A stretch of DNA of 64,000 nt from a plasmid. The notes under the pieces were generated by a model that was not told where the DNA came from, did no database searches, and was given only the letters and a program-made list of their open reading frames with translations. Below, piece after piece: positions 32,530-58,289 of the stretch. Location: the sequence record NZ_CP123987.1; one strand, written 5' to 3'. Both the position numbers and the translations under genes were made by a program. Every line of letters begins with the position of its first letter. The stretch's first letter is position 1.

Positions 32530-33411
32530 CTATAGATTTTTACCAAAAATACGCATTCTAATTTCTTGTCCAGTTGGAGTTCCTGCCAAACCACCAATTC
32601 CAGTTTCTCGTAGTGACTCTGGCATATTTTTACCGACCTTGTCCATCGCACTAATTACTTCATCTGCTGGAATCATACTTTCGCAACCAGCCAGTGCCAT
32701 GTCTGCAGATATCAAAGCATTGCTAGAACCAATAGCATTACGATTAATACAAGGCACTTCTACTAAACCTGCAATAGGATCACATACCAAACCTAATAAA
32801 TTACTAATTACAATCGCCATTGCATTAGCACTCTGTTTAGGAGTCCCGCCTGCTACTTCTACAGCCGCAGCTGCTCCCATTCCAGAAGCACTACCTACTT
32901 CAGCTTGGCAACCACCTGTAGCACCTGCAATGCAAGCATTGTTAGCAATAACCATTCCAAATCCACCAGCAGTAAATAAAAATCTCACCATTTGTTCTTC
33001 ATCTAATCCCAACCTCTTTTCAAGAGTAAATAATACTCCTGGAAGAGTACCTGAAGATCCTGCTGTTGGAGTTGCACATATAACTCCCATCGCTGCATTA
33101 ACTTCATTTGTAGCAATGGCTGATTGTACTGCTGACATTATCATATCTCCAGATAATGTTTTGTGAGATTTTCGATAATCTTTTATTTTTACAGCATCAC
33201 CACCTGTTAATCCTGTTTTAGAGTGTACTCCAATTCCATGGGCACCCCGACTAACTGCTAATCTCATAGTGTCTAAATTATGTTTCATTTTTCTCCATAC
33301 ATCATTTCTGGAAACGTTCATATCGTTACACTCAGCTTGAATAACCAATTCAGATATTGGTAAGTTTTTAATTGTAGCATCGCTAACTAATTCTTCTATA
33401 CTTGCATACAT
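32530..33411 (-). CDS. sdaAA: L-serine dehydratase, Fe-S dependent, alpha subunit
   Basis: 293 aa, collinear with SdaAA. Confidence 0.85.
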   Translation of the reverse strand: MYASIEELVSDATIKNLPISELVIQAECNDMNVSRNDVWRKMKHNLDTMRLAVSRGAHGIGVHSKTGLTGGDAVKIKDYRKSHKTLSGDMIMSAVQSAIATNEVNAAMGVICATPTAGSSGTLPGVLFTLEKRLGLDEEQMVRFLFTAGGFGMVIANNACIAGATGGCQAEVGSASGMGAAAAVEVAGGTPKQSANAMAIVISNLLGLVCDPIAGLVEVPCINRNAIGSSNALISADMALAGCESMIPADEVISAMDKVGKNMPESLRETGIGGLAGTPTGQEIRMRIFGKNL

Positions 33412-34204: not shown

Positions 34205-34955
34205 ATCATAACCACCCGTAAAACGGGTGGTTTGCTCCACGGCTATAAGCCGTTAAGAACAGCCAGCGTCTCAAGGCGCTGGCTTTCTCTTCGTTCAAGC
34301 CAAATTGCTATGATTTCTTTGCCACCACTTTAAGTGGTATTAGTATCACTTTAACTTATTACCCTTAAAAGGGTCTGAATATTCTTTAGTTGTCAATTTA
34401 TCTATCGATAAATCATGTTTTTCTTGATCTCTTATATATTTTCGAATTGTTTGTTCATTCAATCCTACTGTACTAACATAATACCCTTCAGACCAAAAAT
34501 GTCTATTTCCAAATTTGTACTTTAAATTCGCATGTCTATCAAACATCATCAATGCACTTTCCCCCTTTAAGTATCCCATAAAACTTGATACACTCTGCTT
34601 TGGGGGAATACTTACTAAAAGATGTACATGATCTGGCATCATATGTCCTTCTATAATTTTTACTCCTTTATATTGACATAATAACTTTATAATCTCTATT
34701 AAATCTTTTCGGTATTGATAATATATTATTTTACGTCTATACTTTGGAGTGAATACGATATGGTATTTACATAACCATTTTGTATGGGCTAAACTATTTA
34801 GTTTATTAGCCATTTCAAATTATCTCTTTTCTTTTTTATTTTTTGGCCTGAACAACTTAATCTTAAAACCAAAAGAGTAATTTGTATATAATACTTCATT
34901 TTCCACTCGCATAGCGAGTGGTTTTTTGTTTCGTACGCTTTAGCGTACTCAACCA
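34205..34955 (-). mobile_element. IS200/IS605-family element (or RAYT-like) with GC-rich subterminal hairpins
   Basis: tnpA (HUH Y1 transposase) flanked by CCACCCGTAAAACGGGTGG (34211-34231) and CCACTCGCATAGCGAGTGG (34902-34920). Further palindromes at 34238-34252, 34261-34284, 34322-34340 and 34933-34948. Confidence 0.7.
34346..34813 (-). CDS. tnpA: IS200/IS605 family transposase TnpA (Y1 HUH)
   Basis: 155 aa with the HVHLLVSIPP HUH motif. Confidence 0.85.
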   Translation of the reverse strand: MANKLNSLAHTKWLCKYHIVFTPKYRRKIIYYQYRKDLIEIIKLLCQYKGVKIIEGHMMPDHVHLLVSIPPKQSVSSFMGYLKGESALMMFDRHANLKYKFGNRHFWSEGYYVSTVGLNEQTIRKYIRDQEKHDLSIDKLTTKEYSDPFKGNKLK

Positions 34956-35027: not shown

Positions 35028-36533
35028 TTATTTTTTAGTATACTCTACATCGATAGTTCTAACTGTTAATCCTGTTACATCTTTTCTATATTGTGGTGTA
35101 ACTAGACCTACAAGATAACTTACTACAAATGAAGTCAAGAAAGATACACTACTTGTAATGAATGGAGAAATATTCAAGGATTGTACGTAGTATGTTAAAC
35201 CAGCTGCAACAATCAAAGCAATTACAGCACTAACAGTATTTGCTTTTTCTGTAAAAATACCTGCAGCGAAAATACCTGCAATAAAAACACCAAATAACCC
35301 AGTTACTGCTAAGAATAAGTTCCATGTTTCTGAAGTATTACCAACTAATAAATAAATAGCAACTGCTAAACTAAATAAACCAGAAATTATAATAATCCAA
35401 CGAGCTAATGCAACATCACTAACGTTCTTAAATTTATCATTAAAAAATCTTTGTTTAAAGTCAACAATGCCACAAGAAGAGATAGCATTCAAACTAGAAG
35501 CAATAGTTGATTGAGCAGCAGCAAAAATAGCAGCAATAACTAATCCAGCAATACCAGCAGGAAGTTTGGTTACAATGAAGTATGGTACAACTGCACTTGT
35601 ATTAAATCCTTTTGGTAACATTGCTGCGTGGTTGTAGAAACTAAATAGAACTGTACCCATTCCATAAAAAATAGGAATTGTGATAAATGCTAAAATACCA
35701 TTTGTCCAAAGAGATTTTTTTGTTTCTTCCATTGTTGCTGTTGTTTGATAACGTTGTACAACATCTTGACTACCAGTGTATTGATACAAACTATTAAAGA
35801 ATTGACCTGCAAATATCAAGGGTAAGAATTTGGATAAGTCACTTATTTTCATATCAAATCCAGAAATTAATTTATGATGTGTAATTGCATCAGAAGCTAC
35901 AGTAGCCCAGCCCCCATCAATATAATGTGCACCTAAAATAATAACTAATAAGGCACCACCAAGTAGTAAAATGCCTTGGATAACATCTGACCAAATAACC
36001 CCTTCAATACCACCAAGGAATGTGTAAATGATACATAATCCACCAACAAATAATGCAATGATAATTGGATTAATATCAGAAACAGATGTAATTGCAATTA
36101 TAGGTAGGTAAATAACAATAGCTACTCGAGCAATATGATAAAGCATAAATAGTAAGCTACCTAAGATTCTCATTACTGGACCAAATCTTTCTTCTAAATA
36201 TCCATAAGCTGTTGGAACTTTTAATTTTCTAAAAAATGGAACATAATATTTAACCAAAATTGGAATAATAGCAATAATTGCTAGATTACCAATTGAGTAT
36301 GCCCAGTCGTTTAAGAAAGCTTGTTCAGGAGTAGACATAAATGTTATTGCGCTTAAAGTTGTTGCATATATACTAAATCCTGCGGCCCAAGCTGGAATTT
36401 TACCTTCGGCTGTAAAAAATGAATCTGTATTCTTACTTGCTTTTTTAGTAAAATATGCACCGACAGCTAACATTGCTAATAAATATAGAACTAGAACAAT
36501 CCAATTAAGAGTACCAAAACCTACTTTTTCCAT
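35028..36533 (-). CDS. Sodium:solute symporter (SSS family), sialic-acid transporter candidate by context
   Basis: 501 aa, about 13 TM segments, SSS-family signature. Neighbours nanK/nanA/nanE. Confidence 0.7.
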   Translation of the reverse strand: MEKVGFGTLNWIVLVLYLLAMLAVGAYFTKKASKNTDSFFTAEGKIPAWAAGFSIYATTLSAITFMSTPEQAFLNDWAYSIGNLAIIAIIPILVKYYVPFFRKLKVPTAYGYLEERFGPVMRILGSLLFMLYHIARVAIVIYLPIIAITSVSDINPIIIALFVGGLCIIYTFLGGIEGVIWSDVIQGILLLGGALLVIILGAHYIDGGWATVASDAITHHKLISGFDMKISDLSKFLPLIFAGQFFNSLYQYTGSQDVVQRYQTTATMEETKKSLWTNGILAFITIPIFYGMGTVLFSFYNHAAMLPKGFNTSAVVPYFIVTKLPAGIAGLVIAAIFAAAQSTIASSLNAISSCGIVDFKQRFFNDKFKNVSDVALARWIIIISGLFSLAVAIYLLVGNTSETWNLFLAVTGLFGVFIAGIFAAGIFTEKANTVSAVIALIVAAGLTYYVQSLNISPFITSSVSFLTSFVVSYLVGLVTPQYRKDVTGLTVRTIDVEYTKK

Positions 36534-39290: not shown

Positions 39291-40154
39291 TTATATATTT
39301 ACTAGCTCAGCAATTCCACCTAAAAGTTGTGCTTTATTTGCTAAATGACTAACCTTAATTTGTGTCTGTATCAATCCTTTAGGAACATATTCTTCAAGAT
39401 GTCTTTCTACTAAATCAACTAGATATTCTCCTTGTTTAGCAACTGCTCCACCTAATAAGATAAGTTCAGGATCAAATAACAAAATAATTTCTGCCACACC
39501 TCGTGCTACTTCATCTCCCCAATCTTCAATAATCTTTTCAAATCTTTCATCACCAGCTTTAGCTTTTTCAAAAGCATCAATTACAGATATATCAAATTTT
39601 TTCAAGTAAGCTTCTAGACTTAAAGTAGCTGCTCTTTTCTGATAGTCTGTTTTAGTATTTTTATCATAAAGAGTATAACCAATAGAATTAGCACCAGCAT
39701 GAGCACCAGAAAATAATTTCCCTTCATAAAAATATGCACCACCTATACCAGTACCTAACGCTATACAATAAACATTGTCACTGCCTTTCGCACCACCAGC
39801 TAAACGTTCTCCTAATAAAGCAGCATCTACATCATTAACTACTGATACTGGTAATCCAGATAATTCCTCTAACTCCTTCTTTATAGGTGTTCCTATATAT
39901 CCTGGGATTGTTGGACCAGCATATTGAATTTCACCATTTTTACCAACAATACCAGCTGTACTAACACCAATTCCTAGTAAAGTGTAAGAATTCATCATTT
40001 CTTCAGTAATTTTCTTTAGGCTTTTTAAAATATGACCATCTTTATTTTCTAAAGTTGGACAACTACTACTTTCGATAATATTTAATTCAGAATCAATCAA
40101 GCCATATTTAATGGTAGTACCACCTACATCAAAACCTAAATAATATTTTTTCAT
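39291..40154 (-). CDS. nanK: ROK-family N-acetylmannosamine kinase
   Basis: DVGGT N-terminal ATP motif. 287 aa. nan-cluster context. Confidence 0.75.
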   Translation of the reverse strand: MKKYYLGFDVGGTTIKYGLIDSELNIIESSSCPTLENKDGHILKSLKKITEEMMNSYTLLGIGVSTAGIVGKNGEIQYAGPTIPGYIGTPIKKELEELSGLPVSVVNDVDAALLGERLAGGAKGSDNVYCIALGTGIGGAYFYEGKLFSGAHAGANSIGYTLYDKNTKTDYQKRAATLSLEAYLKKFDISVIDAFEKAKAGDERFEKIIEDWGDEVARGVAEIILLFDPELILLGGAVAKQGEYLVDLVERHLEEYVPKGLIQTQIKVSHLANKAQLLGGIAELVNI

Positions 40155-40350
40155 TTGATTACCTTCTTTCTAAAGGAATTTATTATAACCGCTTTCAATA
40201 TAGCATAAGATACTTTTTTTCTCAAATTAATTTTATAAAAATAATTATCACATTGATATAACAACGTTTACAGCTAATTATGATAATTATTATCTAAATA
40301 TGTTGTTGAAATAATTTTTTTCGTATTGTATAGTATAAACGAAGGTAGTT

Positions 40351-40364: not shown

Positions 40365-40683
40365 AATGAATTGTGAGGTAATAGATTATGAAAAAACTTT
40401 ATTCTGCTCTTATGACTGCATTTAACGAAGATGGTTCTGTTAACTTAGACGGTGTTCGTGAAATGGTTCGTTACAATATTGATGTAAATCATATCGATGG
40501 ACTTTATGTAGGTGGTAGTACTGGTGAAACTTTCATGCTTAGTACAGAAGAAAAAAAGAGTATCTTCAAGGTTGCTTATGAAGAAGCTGCTGGCAAAACA
40601 CATCTTATTGTAAACACACTATAGTGTGACATTACAGATAAAAAGGCCCTCAAAATCACATTTTCCTAGTGATTTTGAGGGCC

Positions 40684-42210
40684 TTACTTTGTACAAATTT
40701 CTTTAACTTTAGAATTCCATGGCAAATAAGCTCCAACCTTGACATTTTCTCGTTTTTCTAATAGTGAGAAAATGTAGTTGAAATACTTGAATATATCTAA
40801 GCCATTCAACTTGGCTGTTTGAACTAAACTATAAAATATTGCACTAGCTTTGGCACCATCAACGCTTCTCGCAAACAATGAGTTCTTACGAACTAAGGTA
40901 GATAGCCTAATCACTTGTTCTATCGGATTGTTTGATAGAGGGAGTTCGCCAATTTTATATATATTTTCTAATCTAGGCTGAAATTTTTTGGCATATTCAA
41001 CAGCTTTCTTTAATTTACTGCTAGGATTAGGGATAGTATCCAGAAAATCGTAGAATTCATCAACATATTTTTTCAAATGAAGCTTCCGCTTCAGTACTTT
41101 TTCTTCTGCATTTTGATACTCAAGCTTCTTTTCTTCTTTAAAAATACGATTTAATAATTCTACCGCTCTTACTGCATATGATCCTCTTCCTTGTTTTAAA
41201 GATTTGACTATTTCCACAAAATGTCTGCGTATATGCACCAAACAGCTACCATATGTAATTTGTGGATACATTTCACTGCTATAGGCATTATAACCATCAC
41301 ACATAATTGCTCCAGTGTAAGCTCCAACCAGATTAGAAATATTTTCTTGCTTTCGGCTACTAGAGTAATTAAACACCACTATTTGATGATTTGAAAATTC
41401 TTCTGTCGTTCTCATTACCCAAAAATACGATTTACTTCGATTCTTTTCTTCCAACACCTGAAAAGGAGTTTCGTCCATATGAATAACCGGATTTTTCAAT
41501 AAAATCTTAGTAAGTTCATCGTGAACCGTTTCTAACTGTTCACTCAATTTAATGATGGCACGTGCCATATGCTTTGTATCTATTGGTAAGCCAATATGTT
41601 TAAAATATATTGCTTGTCTATTCAATGGTACAGCCATTAAATATTTAGAAGTAACTACTTGAGCCAATACACTACTGGAAAAATAACTATGTGGAAAAAT
41701 AGGACTAGTAGGTACTTTACCGGCAACTATTTTATCGCCACCTTTTGGGTGGCAATTTTCACATTTATAGGTTTGCTGATAATGATTACGACAAAAAAGC
41801 TCAGGTTGTTTCAAGCCTACCTCTCGATAAACACATTTTTTGCCAATTAGAGTGAGTTTTTCATGACAATCAGCACAATTTTTTTGTTCAAGATCATGAA
41901 CGACATCTACTTGTACTAAAGTATCAAGAAACTCAGCTCGTTGACCACGTGGTTTAACTTTTCGGTGGCAAACTACTCTAAGCTCTACTTCAACTTCTTC
42001 ATTTTCTTTAGATGAAATATCAGAATCTATATCTAATTCTTCTAATTCAGCCTCTGAAAAAAATGAAAGTTGATTTTTATCTAATTTTTCCGTTTTTTTT
42101 CCAAAAATACGGGCATTGAGAAGCTTAATAGTTTCAGACAATTCTTCAATCTTTTTATGAAGTTGTTGATTTTCCTTTTCAAGCTCCTCTATTCTTTTGT
42201 CTTTATCCAT
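40684..42210 (-). CDS. tnpC: IS66 family transposase TnpC
   Basis: 508 aa with a leucine-zipper-like N-terminus, CxxC...CxxC zinc finger and DDE region. Confidence 0.85.
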   Translation of the reverse strand: MDKDKRIEELEKENQQLHKKIEELSETIKLLNARIFGKKTEKLDKNQLSFFSEAELEELDIDSDISSKENEEVEVELRVVCHRKVKPRGQRAEFLDTLVQVDVVHDLEQKNCADCHEKLTLIGKKCVYREVGLKQPELFCRNHYQQTYKCENCHPKGGDKIVAGKVPTSPIFPHSYFSSSVLAQVVTSKYLMAVPLNRQAIYFKHIGLPIDTKHMARAIIKLSEQLETVHDELTKILLKNPVIHMDETPFQVLEEKNRSKSYFWVMRTTEEFSNHQIVVFNYSSSRKQENISNLVGAYTGAIMCDGYNAYSSEMYPQITYGSCLVHIRRHFVEIVKSLKQGRGSYAVRAVELLNRIFKEEKKLEYQNAEEKVLKRKLHLKKYVDEFYDFLDTIPNPSSKLKKAVEYAKKFQPRLENIYKIGELPLSNNPIEQVIRLSTLVRKNSLFARSVDGAKASAIFYSLVQTAKLNGLDIFKYFNYIFSLLEKRENVKVGAYLPWNSKVKEICTK

Positions 42211-42284
42211 AGTTCGCCACCTCCTCTTTTAAGATTATGCTTAAAAGCATACCAGTAGGCAGCGTTTTTAGTAAAGAAAAATTT

Positions 42285-42641
42285 TTAATAAAATGCACCT
42301 TTTGGTGCTAAATGTACTTTGGGTTGTGGTAAAGGATTAAGTCCACTTAAAAGTAAGTCAATTTGTTGGTTATCTAATTCTTTAACTTCTTCACTAGTTT
42401 TCGGCCAAGTTAAATTACCATTTTCGAAACGTTTATAGAGTAGTATAAAACCTTCACCATCCCAATAAAGAGCTTTAAATCTGTCGTTTCTTCGACCACA
42501 GAACAAGAAGATTGAATCATTATAAAGATTCATACCAAAATTATCGGCAATTAAAATTGCCAGTGTATCGATTCCTTTACGTAAATCAGTGTTGCCACAA
42601 ACAATATATACATGTTTAGGAGAGTGATAATTAACTAACAT
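42285..42641 (-). CDS. tnpB: IS66 Orf2 (TnpB) accessory protein
   Basis: 118 aa, conserved IS66 Orf2 pattern (DLRKGIDTLA...LYWDGEGF). Confidence 0.8.
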   Translation of the reverse strand: MLVNYHSPKHVYIVCGNTDLRKGIDTLAILIADNFGMNLYNDSIFLFCGRRNDRFKALYWDGEGFILLYKRFENGNLTWPKTSEEVKELDNQQIDLLLSGLNPLPQPKVHLAPKGAFY

Positions 42642-42882
42642 ATTTCTTTATCAACTCCCAGACGTCATTCATTACTTCAGTATCAACTCCGTGACACAAC
42701 AAAATTTTCACCTTATCAAATTTAATTTCAGCATCTAAATTCAATTTGGTTGTTTTAATTTTAGTTGCTGTTTTCCGTTTTTTAGTTGGTTTTACTTCAA
42801 CAATTTCAGTTTCTTCCATTGTATAAAAAATCCTCCTATACTTTTTATGATAATAGTATAGGGGGATTTCAAATTTTTTCAT
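42631..42882 (-). CDS. IS66 Orf1 (TnpA-like) small protein
   Basis: 83 aa, overlaps Orf2 as is typical for IS66. Confidence 0.5.
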   Translation of the reverse strand: MKKFEIPLYYYHKKYRRIFYTMEETEIVEVKPTKKRKTATKIKTTKLNLDAEIKFDKVKILLCHGVDTEVMNDVWELIKKYVS

Positions 42883-43586
42883 ATTCAGCTCATTATAAAG
42901 TACTTACATCTTATTGCTCAAGTAGGGTCTTTGAATTTAAATGAAGCAAAAGAATTAGCTAAATATGTGACTGATTTAGGTTACCCTATGATTTCTGCTG
43001 TTACACCTTTCTATTATAATTTCTCATTTGAACAAATTAAGAATTATTATAATTCAATTCTTGAAGGTGTAGATAATAAACTTATTATTTATTCTATTCC
43101 AGCTTTAACAGGTGTAGCATTATCTCTAGATCAATTTGCTGAATTGTTTGAAAATCCAAAAATTGTAGGTATTAAATATACTAATGCCGATTTCTATCTC
43201 CTAGAACGTGTTCGTAATCGTTTCCCAGATAAGTTAATTCTTTCAGGTTTTGACGAAATGCTATTACCTGCTCTTGCATTGGACGTTGATGGTGCAATTG
43301 GTTCAACATTTAACTTAAACGCTCCTCGTGTTAAAGAAGAAATTGCAGCTTTCGAGGCTGGAGATATAGAAAAAGCTCGTGAACTTCAAACATTAAGTAA
43401 TGACTATATTACTGATCTTTTAAATAATGATTTATATCCAACTATTAAGTTAGTATTTGAAAAAATTGGTGTTCATGCTGGCTACTGCAAAGAACCTATG
43501 AGCAAGCCAACTCCTGAAATGGAAGCTGGAGCTCAAAAGATTTATGAAAAATATTTCAAAGAATAGTAGAAATTGGGGTGAAGATT

Positions 43587-44276
43587 ATGGAAAATACCTT
43601 TCTTGATCAAGTTCATGGAAAATTAATTATTTCTTGTCAAGCACTTGAAGGTGAGCCTTTACATAGCTCCTTCATTATGGCACGTATGGCACGTGCTGCT
43701 AAAATGGCTGGTGCTCCTGCAATTAGAGCTAATTCTGTCGTTGATATTCAAGCTATTCAAGACGAGACTGGACTTCCAATTATTGGAATTATAAAAAAAG
43801 ATTATCCAGATTCTGACGTATATATTACTCCAACTCTTAAAGAAATGCGTCAAGTTGCTGCTACTGGAGTTGAAGTTGTTGCTTGCCAAGTAACAGGACA
43901 AGCACGTCCTAATGGAGAAAAATTGGAAGAAATCATTCCTCAATTCCGCGAAGAATTTCCTAATACTCTTCTTATGGCTGATACTGGTGATCTCAATGAT
44001 GTCAAAGAAGCTAATAGACTTGGTTTCGATATTATCGGTACGACTATGCATGGCTATACCCCTACTACTAAAGGTATGAATATTGCTGATAATGATTTTG
44101 AATATTTAAAAGAAGTTCTAAAAGTTGCTGAGCATCCAGTTATTGCTGAAGGTAAAATTGATCTCCCCCAAAAAGCTAAACGTGTTTTAGAATTAGGTGT
44201 ACATGCCTTAGTAGTTGGTGGCGCGATTACTCGTCCACTAGAAATTGCAAATAAATTTATGGACGCAATTAAGTAA
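43587..44276 (+). CDS. nanE: N-acetylmannosamine-6-phosphate 2-epimerase
   Basis: 229 aa collinear with NanE. RBS GGGGTGAAG before ATG 43587. Confidence 0.85.
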   Translation: MENTFLDQVHGKLIISCQALEGEPLHSSFIMARMARAAKMAGAPAIRANSVVDIQAIQDETGLPIIGIIKKDYPDSDVYITPTLKEMRQVAATGVEVVACQVTGQARPNGEKLEEIIPQFREEFPNTLLMADTGDLNDVKEANRLGFDIIGTTMHGYTPTTKGMNIADNDFEYLKEVLKVAEHPVIAEGKIDLPQKAKRVLELGVHALVVGGAITRPLEIANKFMDAIK

Positions 44277-44312: not shown

Positions 44313-45146
44313 GTGATGTTGATGAATTTGCTTAATAATATAGAAGCAATTTTCTCCACACTTTCTCGCCAAGAACGTAAAGTAGCTTTAAAAGTTCTTC
44401 AAAATCCTCAAGAAGTACAATCTATGAATATTACTAAATTAGCTAAAAAAGCGGGTGTTAGTAATGCTACTATCACTCGCTTTGTGCGTAGAATGGAATG
44501 TTCTGATTTTCATGATTTTAAATTAAAGCTCGCTATATCTGCTGCTAGCTCTCCTGAGGTTCCAGTTTCTTCTGAAAGCGATTCTATGGGAGATAAAGTT
44601 TACGAATTCTATCAAAAAGTACTTCAAGGTACTTGGAAGCAACTAGATACTGACACTATTCATAATATTGTCCATGCTATTACTAAGGCTCGTCGTGTCT
44701 ACGTTTACGGTTTAGGAAGTTCAGGTTATACTGCACAAGAATTCACTCAACGACTAATTCGTATGGGAATTGCTGCTTTTTGTACAGTCGATAGCCATAT
44801 GATGTTTATAGATAGTACTATTGTAAACTCTGATGATGTTATCATCGCCATTAGTCAATCTGGTAATACTGATGATGTAAATGTTGCTTGTTCTTTAGCA
44901 AAACAAAAAGGAACAAAAATTATCAGCATCACTGGATTTTATCAAAGTCCACTTATCGAACTCTCTACTTGGAGTGTAGTTGTTAAAAACAGTAATTTTG
45001 TTGATAATACTCGCTTTATTAATTCTCAGCTAGCGATCGTTTATGTTATCGATATTATTACAATGGAACTGATGGAAAAATCTGAATATAGTTCTACTAT
45101 GAATAAGACCGTTGAATTAATCATGGATCGAAAATTATCTAAATAA
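44313..45146 (+). CDS. RpiR/MurR-family transcriptional regulator (HTH plus SIS)
   Basis: N-terminal HTH (ITKLAKKAGVSNATITRFVRR) and C-terminal SIS domain. nan-cluster context. Confidence 0.8.
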   Translation: MMLMNLLNNIEAIFSTLSRQERKVALKVLQNPQEVQSMNITKLAKKAGVSNATITRFVRRMECSDFHDFKLKLAISAASSPEVPVSSESDSMGDKVYEFYQKVLQGTWKQLDTDTIHNIVHAITKARRVYVYGLGSSGYTAQEFTQRLIRMGIAAFCTVDSHMMFIDSTIVNSDDVIIAISQSGNTDDVNVACSLAKQKGTKIISITGFYQSPLIELSTWSVVVKNSNFVDNTRFINSQLAIVYVIDIITMELMEKSEYSSTMNKTVELIMDRKLSK

Positions 45147-47966: not shown

Positions 47967-48126
47967 TAAATGATAACAATTACTATTTAAAAAGTCAATA
48001 AAAATTATCATATTCAGAGTAAAGTTAAATAATTTGATTACTTTTTTTCAATTTTCTACAATTATCTTATTAACTACTCTAAGATTAGAAGGGAGAACGG
48101 CATTTTTTTTATTGCCTATTAATTCA

Positions 48127-50046
48127 TTGAAATATATTGTTACTGGAATTATTGCCAATGTTGATGCAGGAAAAACTACTCTTTCTGAAGCATTACTATA
48201 TCAAACGGGAAATCTACTCAATTTAGGTCGCGTTGATAACGGCAATACTTTCTTAGATACTGACCAACTAGAAAAAAAGCGTGGTATTACTATTTTTTCA
48301 CACCAAGCAAATTTAGAATATAATGATCTTTCACTGACAATTTTAGATACTCCAGGACACGTTGATTTTGTTACTCAAACCGAACAAGTTTTAAGTGTTC
48401 TTGACTATGCTATATTAGTTATTTCTGCTACTGATGGAATTACTAGTCACACTAGATCTCTTTGGAATTTGCTAAATCATTACCATATTCCTGTATTTAT
48501 TTTTGTTAATAAAATTGATATCAGCACTAATAAGGCCTCACAGATTTTATCTCAATTAAAAAGTGAATTAGATGAATCAATTATTGATTTTTCTTCTGAT
48601 AATATGATTGAAGATATTGCAACGTGCAATGAATCATTATTTGAAGAGTATTTGCAAATTAATACCATATCTGATGAAAAAATTCTATCACTAATCTCTG
48701 ATAGAGTTATTTTCCCATGCTATTTTGGCTCTGCTTTAAAGTTAGATGGTATTGATAAATTTTTACAAGGATTCAATCAATGGACAAAAAAGTTACACTA
48801 TCCGAATAATTTCCAAGCCAAAGTATTTAAAATTTCTCACAACGATAAAGGTGAACGTCTAACCTGGCTTCGTATTCTAGGCGGCTCTCTAAAAACTAGA
48901 GATGAATTATTACCTGAACAAAAAATTAGTCAAATTAGAGTATATAATGGTGAAAAGTTTTCAACTTACCCAACTGTTACTGCTGGTCAAGTTTGTACAA
49001 TTCCTGGGCTAGTAAATACCTATCCTGGTTTAAGCATTGGTAAAAAACAAGTAGATACAATTCCAATCGTTACACCTGTTTTAAGTTATGCTCTTGACCT
49101 CAATGGCAATGATATTCAAGCTTGTTTAAAAGCTCTTCATGAATTAGAAGATGAAGATCCTAAGTTACATGTTACTTGGTCTGAACATCTCAAAGAAATT
49201 AGTGTACAAATTATGGGAGAAATTCAGTTAGAAATCCTAGAACAAATACTCCTTGATCGATATAATTTAAACGTCACTTTTACTAAAGGAAATATTTTAT
49301 ATAAAGAAACTATCACTAATTCTATTGAGGGAGTTGGTCACTTCGAACCACTTCGTCATTATTCAGAAGTACATTTATTATTAGAACCTGGAGAAAGAGG
49401 CAGTGGTCTCCAGTTCGAAAATCAATGTAGTCTAGAAGTCTTAAATAAAAATTGGCAACATCAAATTATATACAATCTCAAGTCTAAAGAGCATCTAGGT
49501 GTATTAACTGGTTCCCCTCTTACTGATGTAAAAATTACCCTTTTAGGCGGGAAAGCTAGCAATGTACATACAGTTGGTGGAGATTTTCGTCAAGCATGTA
49601 GTCGTGCAGTTCGACAAGGTTTAATGATGCTCAGAGAAAATAATAATTGCCAACTCTTAGAACCTTGGTATCGTTTCAGACTAAAAGTTGATCGTACTCA
49701 AATTGGTCGTGCAATCAATGATATTCAACGAATGCATGGTACCTTGGATGAACAACAAGTTGAGGGGATACTAACTGGAATTGCTCCTGTTTCAGAAATG
49801 TACAATTATGCCACCAATGTACGCGCATATACTCATGGGAATGGCACACTAGAATTGGAAATTGCTGGTTATTATCCTTGTCATAATTCGACAGATATAG
49901 TATCTCAACAAAATTATGATCCTGTATCAGATTTAGAAAATACTCCACAATCTGTTTTCTGTGCTCATGGAGCTGGATATACAGTTGACTGGAAAGATGT
50001 ACCTACAACTATGCATTGCGAGTATTTTTGGAATGGGATGAATTAG
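48127..50046 (+). CDS. TetM/TetO-family ribosomal-protection-type GTPase (EF-G paralog)
   Basis: G1 motif ANVDAGKTT and the VDNGNTFLDTDQLEKKRGITI segment parallel TetM [21 protein letters not shown]. Also DTPGH and NKID motifs. About 640 aa from TTG 48127. The ORF track extends to 48034. Confidence 0.7.
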   Translation: MKYIVTGIIANVDAGKTTLSEALLYQTGNLLNLGRVDNGNTFLDTDQLEKKRGITIFSHQANLEYNDLSLTILDTPGHVDFVTQTEQVLSVLDYAILVISATDGITSHTRSLWNLLNHYHIPVFIFVNKIDISTNKASQILSQLKSELDESIIDFSSDNMIEDIATCNESLFEEYLQINTISDEKILSLISDRVIFPCYFGSALKLDGIDKFLQGFNQWTKKLHYPNNFQAKVFKISHNDKGERLTWLRILGGSLKTRDELLPEQKISQIRVYNGEKFSTYPTVTAGQVCTIPGLVNTYPGLSIGKKQVDTIPIVTPVLSYALDLNGNDIQACLKALHELEDEDPKLHVTWSEHLKEISVQIMGEIQLEILEQILLDRYNLNVTFTKGNILYKETITNSIEGVGHFEPLRHYSEVHLLLEPGERGSGLQFENQCSLEVLNKNWQHQIIYNLKSKEHLGVLTGSPLTDVKITLLGGKASNVHTVGGDFRQACSRAVRQGLMMLRENNNCQLLEPWYRFRLKVDRTQIGRAINDIQRMHGTLDEQQVEGILTGIAPVSEMYNYATNVRAYTHGNGTLELEIAGYYPCHNSTDIVSQQNYDPVSDLENTPQSVFCAHGAGYTVDWKDVPTTMHCEYFWNGMN

Positions 50047-52055: not shown

Positions 52056-53810
52056 CTACTTTCCACCAAATATTTTCCCAAAGAATCCTTTTTTCTTTTT
52101 ATTTCTCTCATCCATTGCGTCAACCACTTGTTTAACTAGATCTTTTTGTAAATCCATTTGAATTTGTGCTTGCATCTTAACTTGCCTATATGTTTCCTCT
52201 TTCTTATCAGTAATTCCGTGAGTATCCTCATACTTTTTGCGAAGAACAGGCTCTCCCATCCATTTATCGAAGTTATCTACATCGATCATGAATCCAGAAG
52301 TACCATACTTACTACTATCAGAAATTTCATACTTACGCGGAAGATTATTATAGTACAACCCCATCTGTGAACTACCATTATTTTTATTGGTCCCATCTGA
52401 CAATTTATTAAACGCTTGTTTATTAAATTGTGCTTGTAGCTGCTTTCTATAAAAGAAAAATCGTCTGGTTCTTTTACCTGTTCTATTAACATATGCCAAT
52501 CTGACTTACCTCTATATAAAGCATAGTCATAGTTATCTTTTTCAAAAAATTTCTCAATTTCTTGAAAAAGATCATATTTAACAAGTAAGTCCTTTAAGAT
52601 TTTCTTAATTGGATACAAAAAGTCTGCCTGAATTTTTATAGCATCCTCTTCTGAAATATCTTTAAAATATTCTTCCAATAATTGTTGGCATAAGTAATAT
52701 AGATCAGAGTCAGCACGATTTAGTAGTTCATCTACTTTCAAATCTCCTTCTTTACTGTTACCTTTAAATGATGATTCAAAAGATAAGAACCAAATACGTC
52801 TTGCAATTTCATGACGATTAGATACAACGCCCTTAGAATCATCCTCTTTATTCATTGTAAATATTGCAGTAGGCATTGGGCCAGTTATAGAGTTTGAATT
52901 GCGTTTAATCATATCTTCAAAATATTGTCTAGTTGTTAAATCAGGACGAACATCATCAATCATTAATGGACTAACTGGACCTGATGTTTGTAAATATTCA
53001 TTAATAACATCACTTATTGCTTTGTTAACATATTTATTTCTTTCTTCAAACTCACCACTACCCGTAAAATTTAGTGCACCTGTCAACTTAGCGGCTAATC
53101 TTCTACCTAATGTCGATTTTCCCGTCTTACCTTGTCCAATCAAAGCAACTGCTATTGGAACATCTTCTCTATGTTTGCTTTTATCCGCTAAATCATATAA
53201 ATCTCTTACCCTCCAAATAAAAGGTGCTTCATATAAATATAATAAAAATCCTAACGTCTGCCATCCTTCTCCTGATAACTTATACGTATCATACTCGTTG
53301 ACAATATCGCAGAATAATTGTAATTTTTCTTTTAATTCTTCATCACTCAATGAAACTTGTTTTAAAACTTGACCACCTTCGCCTACTTTGGATGCAGTAA
53401 ATAATTTTTCAAATTCATTATTCCAAATTAAAGCTGGTTTAGGGAAATAATCCACATCATTTTTTTTCTTAGATGATTTTTTTGAATTTTCTTGATACTC
53501 AATAATTTGATTTAAGTTTAAGATTTCACTAGTAGCTTTCTTTAAGGTCTTTTCTTTTCTCAGATTACCTAGTTCTGTAAATAACTTAATTGTTTGATTA
53601 ACAGTTACAGCTTCCTTTTTACCTAAATTGCCATTTTGAATTTCCTTAGTTGTATCATTTAAATACACTTTTACTTCATCAGAAGGAAAGTTTACCTTTT
53701 CATCTGTATCGGCAGAATTACTTAACATATTGATAGAATCAGTGTACACATTAAGCTGTGTTTGTTTTGAATTATCTTTTACAAGAAAACCTTTTAAGCG
53801 TTTTGAATCT
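52056..53810 (-). pseudogene. C-terminal part of a VirE/primase-associated P-loop ATPase gene, internally frameshifted
   Basis: Walker A motif VALIGQGKTGKST. The reading frame switches between the 52286..53836 and 52056..52499 ORFs at an A5 tract near 52452-52460; one extra A gives a continuous ...EPDDFFFYRKQLQAQFNK... frame. The N-terminus is continuous with 55328..55650 across the IS3 insertion. Confidence 0.65.
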
Positions 53811-53867
53811 TGAAGTGCCTTACAATTGTTAGACAAAGTCTAGCGATTGTGAGGTGCTTTTTTCGTA

Positions 53868-56899: not shown

Positions 56900-57400
56900 T
56901 TTTGATACTATTTTTACACTTCGAACATTATATTGTGCTCGAGGTGTAAAAATAGTCTTTTTTATACAGACTATTTTTACACTCCGAATAGATTCTGTCC
57001 CTTTTCCCTGTATTTCCTTACATTCCAACTTCTTTTTTTAGCTCTATTTAGACTATTCTTACACTTCGAAGTGGTCAATATGACCATTTCGGAGTGGAAA
57101 AATATCTTATTCCCCTTTTTCTTTTATTTTAAAAGACTATTCTTACACTTCGAACATTATATTGTTGCAAAAAAGGCCTTAAATTGCGCGTGTAAGCCTT
57201 GACATATCAAGATTCTTCAATTTTAATAAAATTATCAATTATATACTAAAGTGTTCTTTTCTCACTGTTATTAGATTTCTTGTGATTCGCATAATTACAA
57301 GCTTTATCTATGTAAAAAGTGCATAAGACCGGGATTGGTTTATGTCGAGGTGTAAAAATAGTCTGTAATGTATATCTATTTTTTCGCTGTGTAAGAATGG
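56900..57400. repeat. Iteron-like repeat array (7 copies of AGACTATT(T/C)TTACAC(T)TCGAA in both orientations)
   Basis: Copies at about 56906, 56945 (reverse complement), 56965, 57049, 57137, 57347 (reverse complement) and 57383 (reverse complement). Immediately upstream of a Rep_3-type rep gene. Confidence 0.7.
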
Positions 57401-57524: not shown

Positions 57525-58289
57525 ATGTCTAAAGAACCTGTTGTCCAACAGGAAATTGTAACAGCCTTCCCTAATACCAAGGAAGTTCGTTACGATAATG
57601 AATTAAACCGTATTCCTATTGGGTTTATGAATGAAAGTGAACAGAATATTTTCTTCGCTATCCTAAGTCAGGTTAAAGAAACTAGTGAAAGAAAGACCAA
57701 ATTATCTTTTACTCAAATTCGTGAATTAGCAAGTTTTCAGAAGACTTCAAACAAAGAGTTAATCAAGTCTCTTGATAATATGACAACAAAACTAGCCTCT
57801 TTAAATGTTCGAATCCATAACCAACAACAAATTATTAAGTTTACCCTATTCCCAACTTTTCAAATAGATGGGGATCAGCAAACTCTAACTGTTGCTGTTA
57901 ACGAAGATTTTCGCTATATCGTTAATGATTTAGCCAAAGGATTCGTAACTAACTTTGACATTGAAGAATTTACTTCTATCAAATCTAAATATGCGAAAAC
58001 AGCTTTTCGTTTAGCTAGAGAACACGAAAATGAAGTCTTTGATGTTGTATTAAAGGATTTTAAAGAACTTTTCTCTATTCCTAAATCTTATCGACCAACG
58101 GATATCAATAGATTAATTTTAACAAAAGTTAGTAAAATCCTACAGGAGTATTTTACTGTTTTTGAAATTACACCTGTACAAGATGAAAAAGGTAAAGCTC
58201 ATCGAATTATAGCTTACCGTTTTAATATTGGAAAACGTATTTTAAGAAATCTTGACGAACCACGTCAAATTTCATTATTGGATGACTAA
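57525..58289 (+). CDS. repB: Plasmid replication initiator, Rep_3 (RepB) family
   Basis: 254 aa. The N-terminal pattern ...NELNRIPIGFMNESEQNIFFAILSQV... is typical of Rep_3 initiators of theta plasmids. Preceded by iterons. Confidence 0.7.
   Translation: MSKEPVVQQEIVTAFPNTKEVRYDNELNRIPIGFMNESEQNIFFAILSQVKETSERKTKLSFTQIRELASFQKTSNKELIKSLDNMTTKLASLNVRIHNQQQIIKFTLFPTFQIDGDQQTLTVAVNEDFRYIVNDLAKGFVTNFDIEEFTSIKSKYAKTAFRLAREHENEVFDVVLKDFKELFSIPKSYRPTDINRLILTKVSKILQEYFTVFEITPVQDEKGKAHRIIAYRFNIGKRILRNLDEPRQISLLDD

Follow-up and report, generated by a model that had tools for sequence, protein, structure and literature searches.

Sequence record NZ_CP123987.1 includes a cluster of genes for sialic-acid catabolism (nan genes), and within the 64,000-nt stretch of it that we analysed (hereafter the window, which is part of a Ligilactobacillus salivarius megaplasmid) nanA, the gene for N-acetylneuraminate lyase, is divided in two by an insertion sequence (IS) of the IS66 family. 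We conclude, with a probability of roughly 0.93, that a resident, multi-copy IS66-family element transposed into nanA between codons 74 and 75 on a repA-type megaplasmid, and that the outcome is a recent, strain-specific loss-of-function polymorphism and not a regulatory device. The divided gene and the element lie as follows:

40388-40609, plus strand: 5' fragment of nanA, codons 1-74; the reading frame continues into the IS and stops at 40624
40602-40609: left copy of the target-site duplication ATCTTATT, perfect over 8 bp
40610-42907, minus strand: IS66-family insertion sequence of 2298 bp, with a small orf1, tnpB and tnpC
42908-42915: right copy of the target-site duplication ATCTTATT, perfect over 8 bp
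42916-43566, plus strand: 3' fragment of nanA, codons 75-290, with the Schiff-base lysine motif GIKYT (K161)

An interrupted nanA and its restored product

The element runs from GTAAACAC... to ...AAGTACTTAC and is bracketed exactly by the two copies of ATCTTATT. Since this octamer occurs only nine times on the plus strand of the window, the chance of finding a repeat exactly at the other IS end is about 1e-4. An earlier note on this DNA had proposed that removing 40610-42907 together with one repeat gives back a NanA of 290 amino acids (aa), and this is what we obtained: joining 40388-40609 to 42916-43566 in silico yields an uninterrupted open reading frame (ORF) of 873 nt, whose 290-aa product contains ...KTHLIAQVGSLNLNEAKEL... 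and reads ...KTHLI followed by AQVGSLNLNEAKEL... across the junction. The restored protein scores 426.8 bits against the NCBIfam equivalog model for N-acetylneuraminate lyase (NF003164, cut-off 281) and 142.6 bits against the dapA model, which is under the dapA cut-off; it also lies under the stricter cut-off of TIGR00683 (356.6 vs 382). It aligns end to end (residues 1-288) with the solved NanA 4woq (E = 4e-115) and is an exact match to a protein found on 424 public contigs, named N-acetylneuraminate lyase of L. salivarius, and the restored DNA is 100% identical to locus L002.

As the gene stands, the 5' ORF encodes a product of 78 aa ending in VNTL. The catalytic residues of E. coli NanA are S47/T48, Y137 and K165, and by these roles we take GSTGE (S44/T45) to be the carboxylate-binding motif of the restored protein and K161, within GIKYT, to be its Schiff-base lysine, together with Y133. 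GSTGE is encoded by the 5' fragment, and Y133 and K161 by the 3' fragment 2.3 kb away. The catalytic residues are thus not on one polypeptide, and nanA in its present form is a pseudogene; neither fragment would be expected to be an active lyase. A tblastn search of the window for a second nanA matched the two fragments only. In annotation, the two should be called one pseudogene.

Anatomy of the element and its copies elsewhere

The IS has three ORFs, all on the minus strand, and the assignment to IS66 that the earlier note had made was confirmed by the domains of TnpB and TnpC, both of which exceed curated cut-offs:

40643-40685, minus strand: intrinsic terminator of tnpC, with a perfect 17-bp stem and a 9-nt loop followed by UUUUUAUCU; overlaps the tnpC stop codon
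40684-42210, minus strand: tnpC, IS66 DDE transposase, intact, 508 aa
42285-42641, minus strand: tnpB, IS66 Orf2-type accessory protein, 118 aa, 74 nt upstream of tnpC
42631-42882, minus strand: orf1, in the tnpA position, 83 aa from the first ATG; overlaps the start of tnpB by 11 nt

TnpC matches PF03050 (DDE_Tnp_IS66) over profile positions 1-283 of 284 (E = 4.4e-74), has in addition the leucine-zipper (LZ), zinc-finger (zf-IS66) and C-terminal modules of the family, and reaches 295.6 bits against the IS66 transposase equivalog NF033517 (cut-off 180). TnpB matches PF05717 (E = 3.9e-33) and NF033819 (103.9 bits, cut-off 50). Public gene calls give orf1 as a shorter, 62-aa version (42631-42819), which was seen in loci L012-L020. 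The terminal inverted repeats are imperfect, GTAAACACACTATAGTGTG vs GTAAGTACTTTATAATGAG agreeing at about 13 of 19 positions, and both open with GTAA, the signature of IS66 termini in ISfinder descriptions. Near the orf1 end of the IS there is a second inverted repeat (42828-42869, minus strand; 18 nt, 89% complementary, 6-nt loop), covering AGGAGG, the ribosome-binding site that precedes the 62-aa orf1; by analogy with some other IS elements, it might mask this site in read-through transcripts.

At the opposite end, the hairpin arms (40643-40659 and 40669-40685) are complementary at 17 of 17 positions, and the folding energy of -30.5 kcal/mol compares with -11.9 +/- 2.5 for shuffled sequences (z = -7.5). 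Because the hairpin starts at the tnpC stop codon on the minus strand and is then followed by UUUUUAUCU, we read it as the intrinsic terminator of tnpC. The strong hairpin that the earlier note had placed at 40641-40688, just inside the IS end, is therefore real, with coordinates within 3 nt of ours, and yet it is no special feature of the junction: it is found in every IS copy, since the copies are essentially identical. A search of the window for structured RNA, the hairpin included, returned no Rfam family at gathering score.

The boundaries of the element can be fixed independently of nanA from copies inserted elsewhere. The 1.74-Mb record CP116812.1 holds eight other full-length copies at different sites, seven of them identical and one with a single mismatch, and all eight terminate identically (GTAAGTAC...GTGTTTAC). 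Each of seven is flanked by its own perfect 8-bp duplication (TGTAAAGA, ATTTTTAC, GTTTATTC, GTTTCAAC, TTTAAATC, ATTTATTT and ATGCAATC), and that of the eighth (L015) matches at seven of eight bases. A further copy on a different contig (L020), aligned over 2299 bp, has the perfect 8-bp flanks ATTTACTA. Together with the exact position of ATCTTATT on both sides of the IS in nanA, these copies bear out the earlier claim of an 8-bp target duplication. The targets are AT-rich, with no obvious consensus across the copies.

The exact TnpC protein was found in 3639 blocks of the public collection under the source label 'IS66 family transposase [Ligilactobacillus salivarius]'; 3171 of these blocks are on contigs of 2-5 kb, which is typical of a collapsed repeat at which short-read assemblies break. 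Among plasmid records the IS was found only in L. salivarius (10 records, 99.1-100% identity). We also considered a second copy, or a composite transposon, within the window and rejected it, as blastn of the IS against the window matched only the element itself. The insertion in nanA shows that the IS66 element is presently active in this L. salivarius lineage.

Empty site and support for the junction

Comparison with strains lacking the insertion, which the earlier note had suggested as a check, revealed the empty site in PLSDB: 31 L. salivarius plasmids align to both flanks as two abutting pieces, and in none of the 31 is the IS present at nanA. The closest match is pLS2102-15_1 (NZ_CP090412.1, from a human isolate), in which nanA is uninterrupted and annotated as N-acetylneuraminate lyase. 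The match there is exactly 2680 bp at 100% identity (2680 = 4986 - 2298 - 8), and the empty site, at locus L021, has a single copy of ATCTTATT. Over 18.7 kb this plasmid differs from the window by three single-nucleotide polymorphisms (SNPs; window positions 32810, 37598 and 48133), none of which is in the nan genes. All 64 kb are collinear with it at more than 99.9% identity, and the IS is the sole large difference between the two near-identical plasmids, which argues that the insertion is recent. That the event is recent had already been proposed in the earlier note, and it is further supported by the 100% identity of the IS to copies elsewhere and by the perfect duplication.

The only other structural difference between the window and pLS2102-15_1 is a small indel at 57134-57151 (approximately 16 bp here vs 11 bp there), upstream of a replication initiation gene (57525-58289), which may be a change of repeat number near the origin.

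The left junction was recovered through independent processing of reads. In the Logan assembly of the short-read run SRR24294555, 5248 bp match the window at 100% identity and lead without a break from nanA into the IS, of which the first 26 nt are present. This bears directly on whether the strain's nanA might be truly intact and the IS mis-joined into it during assembly, a concern that arises for any element that is multi-copy in its species (at least eight copies in one 1.74-Mb record) and at which short-read assemblies break. A mis-join would not, however, yield a perfect 8-bp target duplication with both halves of nanA in register, and with the independent assembly passing into the IS as well, we regard an artefact as scarcely credible. 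The exact 78-aa N-terminal product that marks the insertion allele is on record in this one run only.

Two sets of protein fragments were examined as possible further traces of IS insertion and set aside. An exact match to the 211-aa C-terminal product, a candidate for evidence of the right junction, was traced to frameshift alleles in which a run of seven adenines is reduced to six, and not to this insertion. The short N-terminal NanA fragments P0064 and P0070 come from contigs without IS ends, which either stop within plain nanA sequence or have a nonsense codon.

Neighbouring genes and transcription

The other nan genes surround the divided nanA:

35028-36533, minus strand: SiaT-like sodium:solute symporter, probable sialic-acid transporter, intact, 501 aa (PF00474)
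39291-40154, minus strand: ROK-family sugar kinase (nanK by context), intact, 287 aa (PF00480), divergent from nanA
40306-40334, plus strand: candidate nanA promoter TTGAAA-17-TATAGT, 10/12 consensus match
43587-44276, plus strand: nanE, N-acetylmannosamine-6-phosphate 2-epimerase, intact, 229 aa (PF04131; NF002231, 297.9 bits)
44322-45146, plus strand: RpiR/MurR-family regulator (HTH_6 + SIS), intact, 274 aa; a coding sequence (CDS) of 825 nt in the reference

The earlier note had described these neighbours as intact, which is true of their coding sequences: nanE, the regulator gene, the ROK kinase gene and the symporter gene are nucleotide-identical to those of the uninterrupted reference NZ_CP090412.1. 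For nanE the description probably does not extend to expression, as set out below. The exact NanE protein was present in 1455 blocks of the public collection. For the kinase, the name nanK needs qualification. The gene is an intact ROK kinase, with the same sequence as the ROK CDS annotated in the reference, but its product scores well under the NanK equivalog cut-offs (NF047821, 87.7 vs 450 bits; NF003461, 92.4 vs 283), so that it is nanK by gene context only. The transporter, four genes away, was correctly called intact: it is a clear homologue of 5NV9 (E = 1.4e-118), the SiaT of Proteus mirabilis, which the PDB lists as 'putative sodium:solute symporter', and it has the length of the annotated CDS of the reference with no SNP against it. 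Adjoining the symporter gene is an IS200/IS605-type Y1 transposase gene (34346-34813, minus strand; PF01797, E = 1.9e-40), which is also in the reference plasmid and therefore predates the IS66 insertion.

Since nanE starts 20 nt past the end of nanA, the two genes are probably co-transcribed, with nanE dependent on the nanA promoter. Between that promoter and nanE there now lie 2.3 kb of antisense IS, and a polar loss of nanE expression is likely. The hairpin itself, whose plus-strand tail is U-poor (ACUUUGU), would impede nanA transcription only weakly if at all. We found no consensus match on the plus strand in 42558-43020 for an outward promoter directed from the IS towards the nanA 3' part and nanE. 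On the minus strand, at 42921-42892, there is a promoter-like hybrid, with a -35 TTGAGC in the flanking nanA sequence and a -10 TATAAT in the IS end; it is a consensus match only, and any such promoter, formed across the junction, would be peculiar to this insertion site.

Elsewhere in the window, an EF-G-like GTPase gene (48034-50046, plus strand), which the annotation of the reference plasmid assigns to the TetM/TetO-family ribosomal protection proteins, is conserved in place in many L. salivarius megaplasmids and contains SNP 48133. An ORF of 516 aa (52286-53836, minus strand), with no Pfam match and overlapping other ORFs, corresponds in the reference to a 1551-nt hypothetical protein gene beside an IS3 transposase.

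Recurrent loss of nanA in L. salivarius

L. salivarius grows on N-acetylneuraminic acid (Neu5Ac), and among six Lactobacillus species detected in piglets it alone had a NanA homologue; the nan cluster and sialic-acid use were linked to its success over competitors in suckling piglets, and sialic-acid use also to the production of acetate (PMC12103040). The species has also been listed among gut commensals having a nan cluster flanked by transposases (PMC2693436).

Public data include several other routes by which nanA has been broken. A run of seven adenines (A7; window 40551-40557, nanA nt 164-170), unshortened in the window, is shortened to A6 in six public runs (ERR11869360, SRR24757197, DRR162207, SRR32022536, SRR32022434 and SRR32022432; loci L023-L028), which splits the gene into products of 76 and 211 aa. 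Two of these loci (L026 and L027) differ from the other A6 loci by 10-14 SNPs, so the frameshift has occurred on at least two sequence backgrounds, and the tract may be a slippage hot spot. A +1 frameshift after nanA codon 70 (protein P0065), found in 82 blocks of the public collection, belongs to a variant form of the locus (L029-L031 and L007) that is without the ROK kinase, TIM-barrel, antiporter and SiaT-like symporter genes and has a DUF386 gene instead; the variant carries this frameshift in many datasets, and decay in this lineage extends to the entire nan cluster. A nonsense codon (L82*, nt 245 T>A) is present on one 34.9-kb metagenome contig (L034, ERZ1310651), and in the CECT 5713 plasmid (CP002037.1, L008) two 1-nt insertions in nanA truncate the product to 229 aa. 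In L. salivarius, then, sialic-acid catabolism is an accessory trait, borne on a plasmid and often lost, and the IS insertion is one more case.

This recurrence could reflect selection, and it is equally explained by relaxed constraint. It is the point at which two readings that assign the insertion a function have to be weighed. The first is a selected switch, in which loss of nanA is adaptive in the niche of this strain and is reverted by precise excision once sialic acid becomes available, or in which an outward promoter of the IS rewires nanE and the regulator. The independent breaks (A6 in six runs, the +1 frameshift in 82 blocks, L82* and the CECT 5713 indels) are compatible with such selection, and the 8-bp repeats would let the ORF be restored exactly. 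Recurrent loss would, however, be expected just as much if selection on an accessory plasmid trait were relaxed, the plus strand offers no outward consensus promoter in the region searched, the IS genes are directed away from nanE, and the insertion allele is recorded in a single run. Precise excision of IS elements is in general rare and transposase-independent, proceeding by replication slippage. The earlier note had called the inactivation precisely reversible; removal of 2306 bp between the 8-bp repeats would indeed restore the ORF, but this holds on paper and through a rare slippage event, and nothing indicates a switch. We consider this reading very improbable.

The second takes nanA as a contingency locus, turned OFF repeatedly by A7 slippage, other frameshifts, nonsense mutation and IS66 insertion. 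Certain hosts or niches would then select for loss of cleavage with uptake, NanK and NanE retained, and an occasional return to ON would be possible through the A7 tract and the IS duplication. We put this forward tentatively and think it unlikely.

Interpretation of the insertion

Under the reading that we prefer, a strain-specific knockout by a resident IS, the DDE transposase TnpC would have made staggered cuts 8 bp apart in the nanA target, and repair of the resulting gaps would have given rise to the ATCTTATT duplication. The insertion would part the N-terminal 74 residues, with GSTGE, from the rest of the TIM barrel, with Y133 and K161, and with no active lyase Neu5Ac would not be cleaved to N-acetylmannosamine (ManNAc) and pyruvate. 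With 2.3 kb of antisense IS and its strong hairpin in the way, nanE would probably also be transcribed less from the nanA promoter, and perhaps the regulator gene as well. The strain is accordingly predicted to lack lyase activity and, unlike most L. salivarius, to be unable to grow on Neu5Ac, which is of relevance to the choice of probiotic strains.

Several points weigh against this reading or temper it. The loss of function and the effects on expression are read from the DNA. The right junction was not found in independent data, where its expected product would be cut by the contig end and so lie beyond exact look-up. A second nanA elsewhere in the genome is possible, as our search covered the 64-kb window, and a NanA homologue has been reported in the L. 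salivarius type strain (PMC12103040). Within the IS, orf1 has no recognisable TnpA or HTH domain, with no Pfam match even at E = 10 and none in NCBIfam.

Comparison with known systems

The element agrees with the canonical three-ORF IS66 arrangement (tnpA, tnpB, tnpC) in the order small orf1-tnpB-tnpC and in the overlap of orf1 with tnpB, and it is like the family in its length of 2.3 kb, GTAA termini, imperfect inverted repeats and 8-bp target duplication. It differs in orf1, which is short (62-83 aa) and without a detectable TnpA/HTH domain. At the DNA level it is 100% identical to chromosomal copies and to the element of L. salivarius strain Ren (plasmid NZ_CP011404.1), annotated there and in other strains as 'IS66 family transposase' plus 'IS66 family accessory protein TnpB'; in the literature on this L. 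salivarius IS66 element we found no name for it. Against the annotated L. salivarius IS66 copies, the insertion site alone is new.

The gene set is that of the Gram-positive nan cluster of the Staphylococcus aureus / Lactiplantibacillus plantarum type, with NanA, NanE, a ROK kinase, an RpiR regulator and a SiaT-like symporter. Here, in contrast to that type, nanA is interrupted, the symporter gene is parted from nanK by ndk, a TIM-barrel gene and a cation:proton antiporter gene, and the kinase lies under the NanK equivalog cut-offs. The result is the same as in the other nanA pseudogenes of L. salivarius (frameshift, nonsense and indel alleles), namely a truncated NanA with the downstream nan genes kept; those are point events, whereas the present one is a transposition, potentially polar and marked by a duplication. 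It is nonetheless an ordinary strain-level knockout of a known gene by a known IS66-family element. Disruption of an accessory catabolic gene by an IS is a textbook, already-known kind of event and conceptually nothing new.

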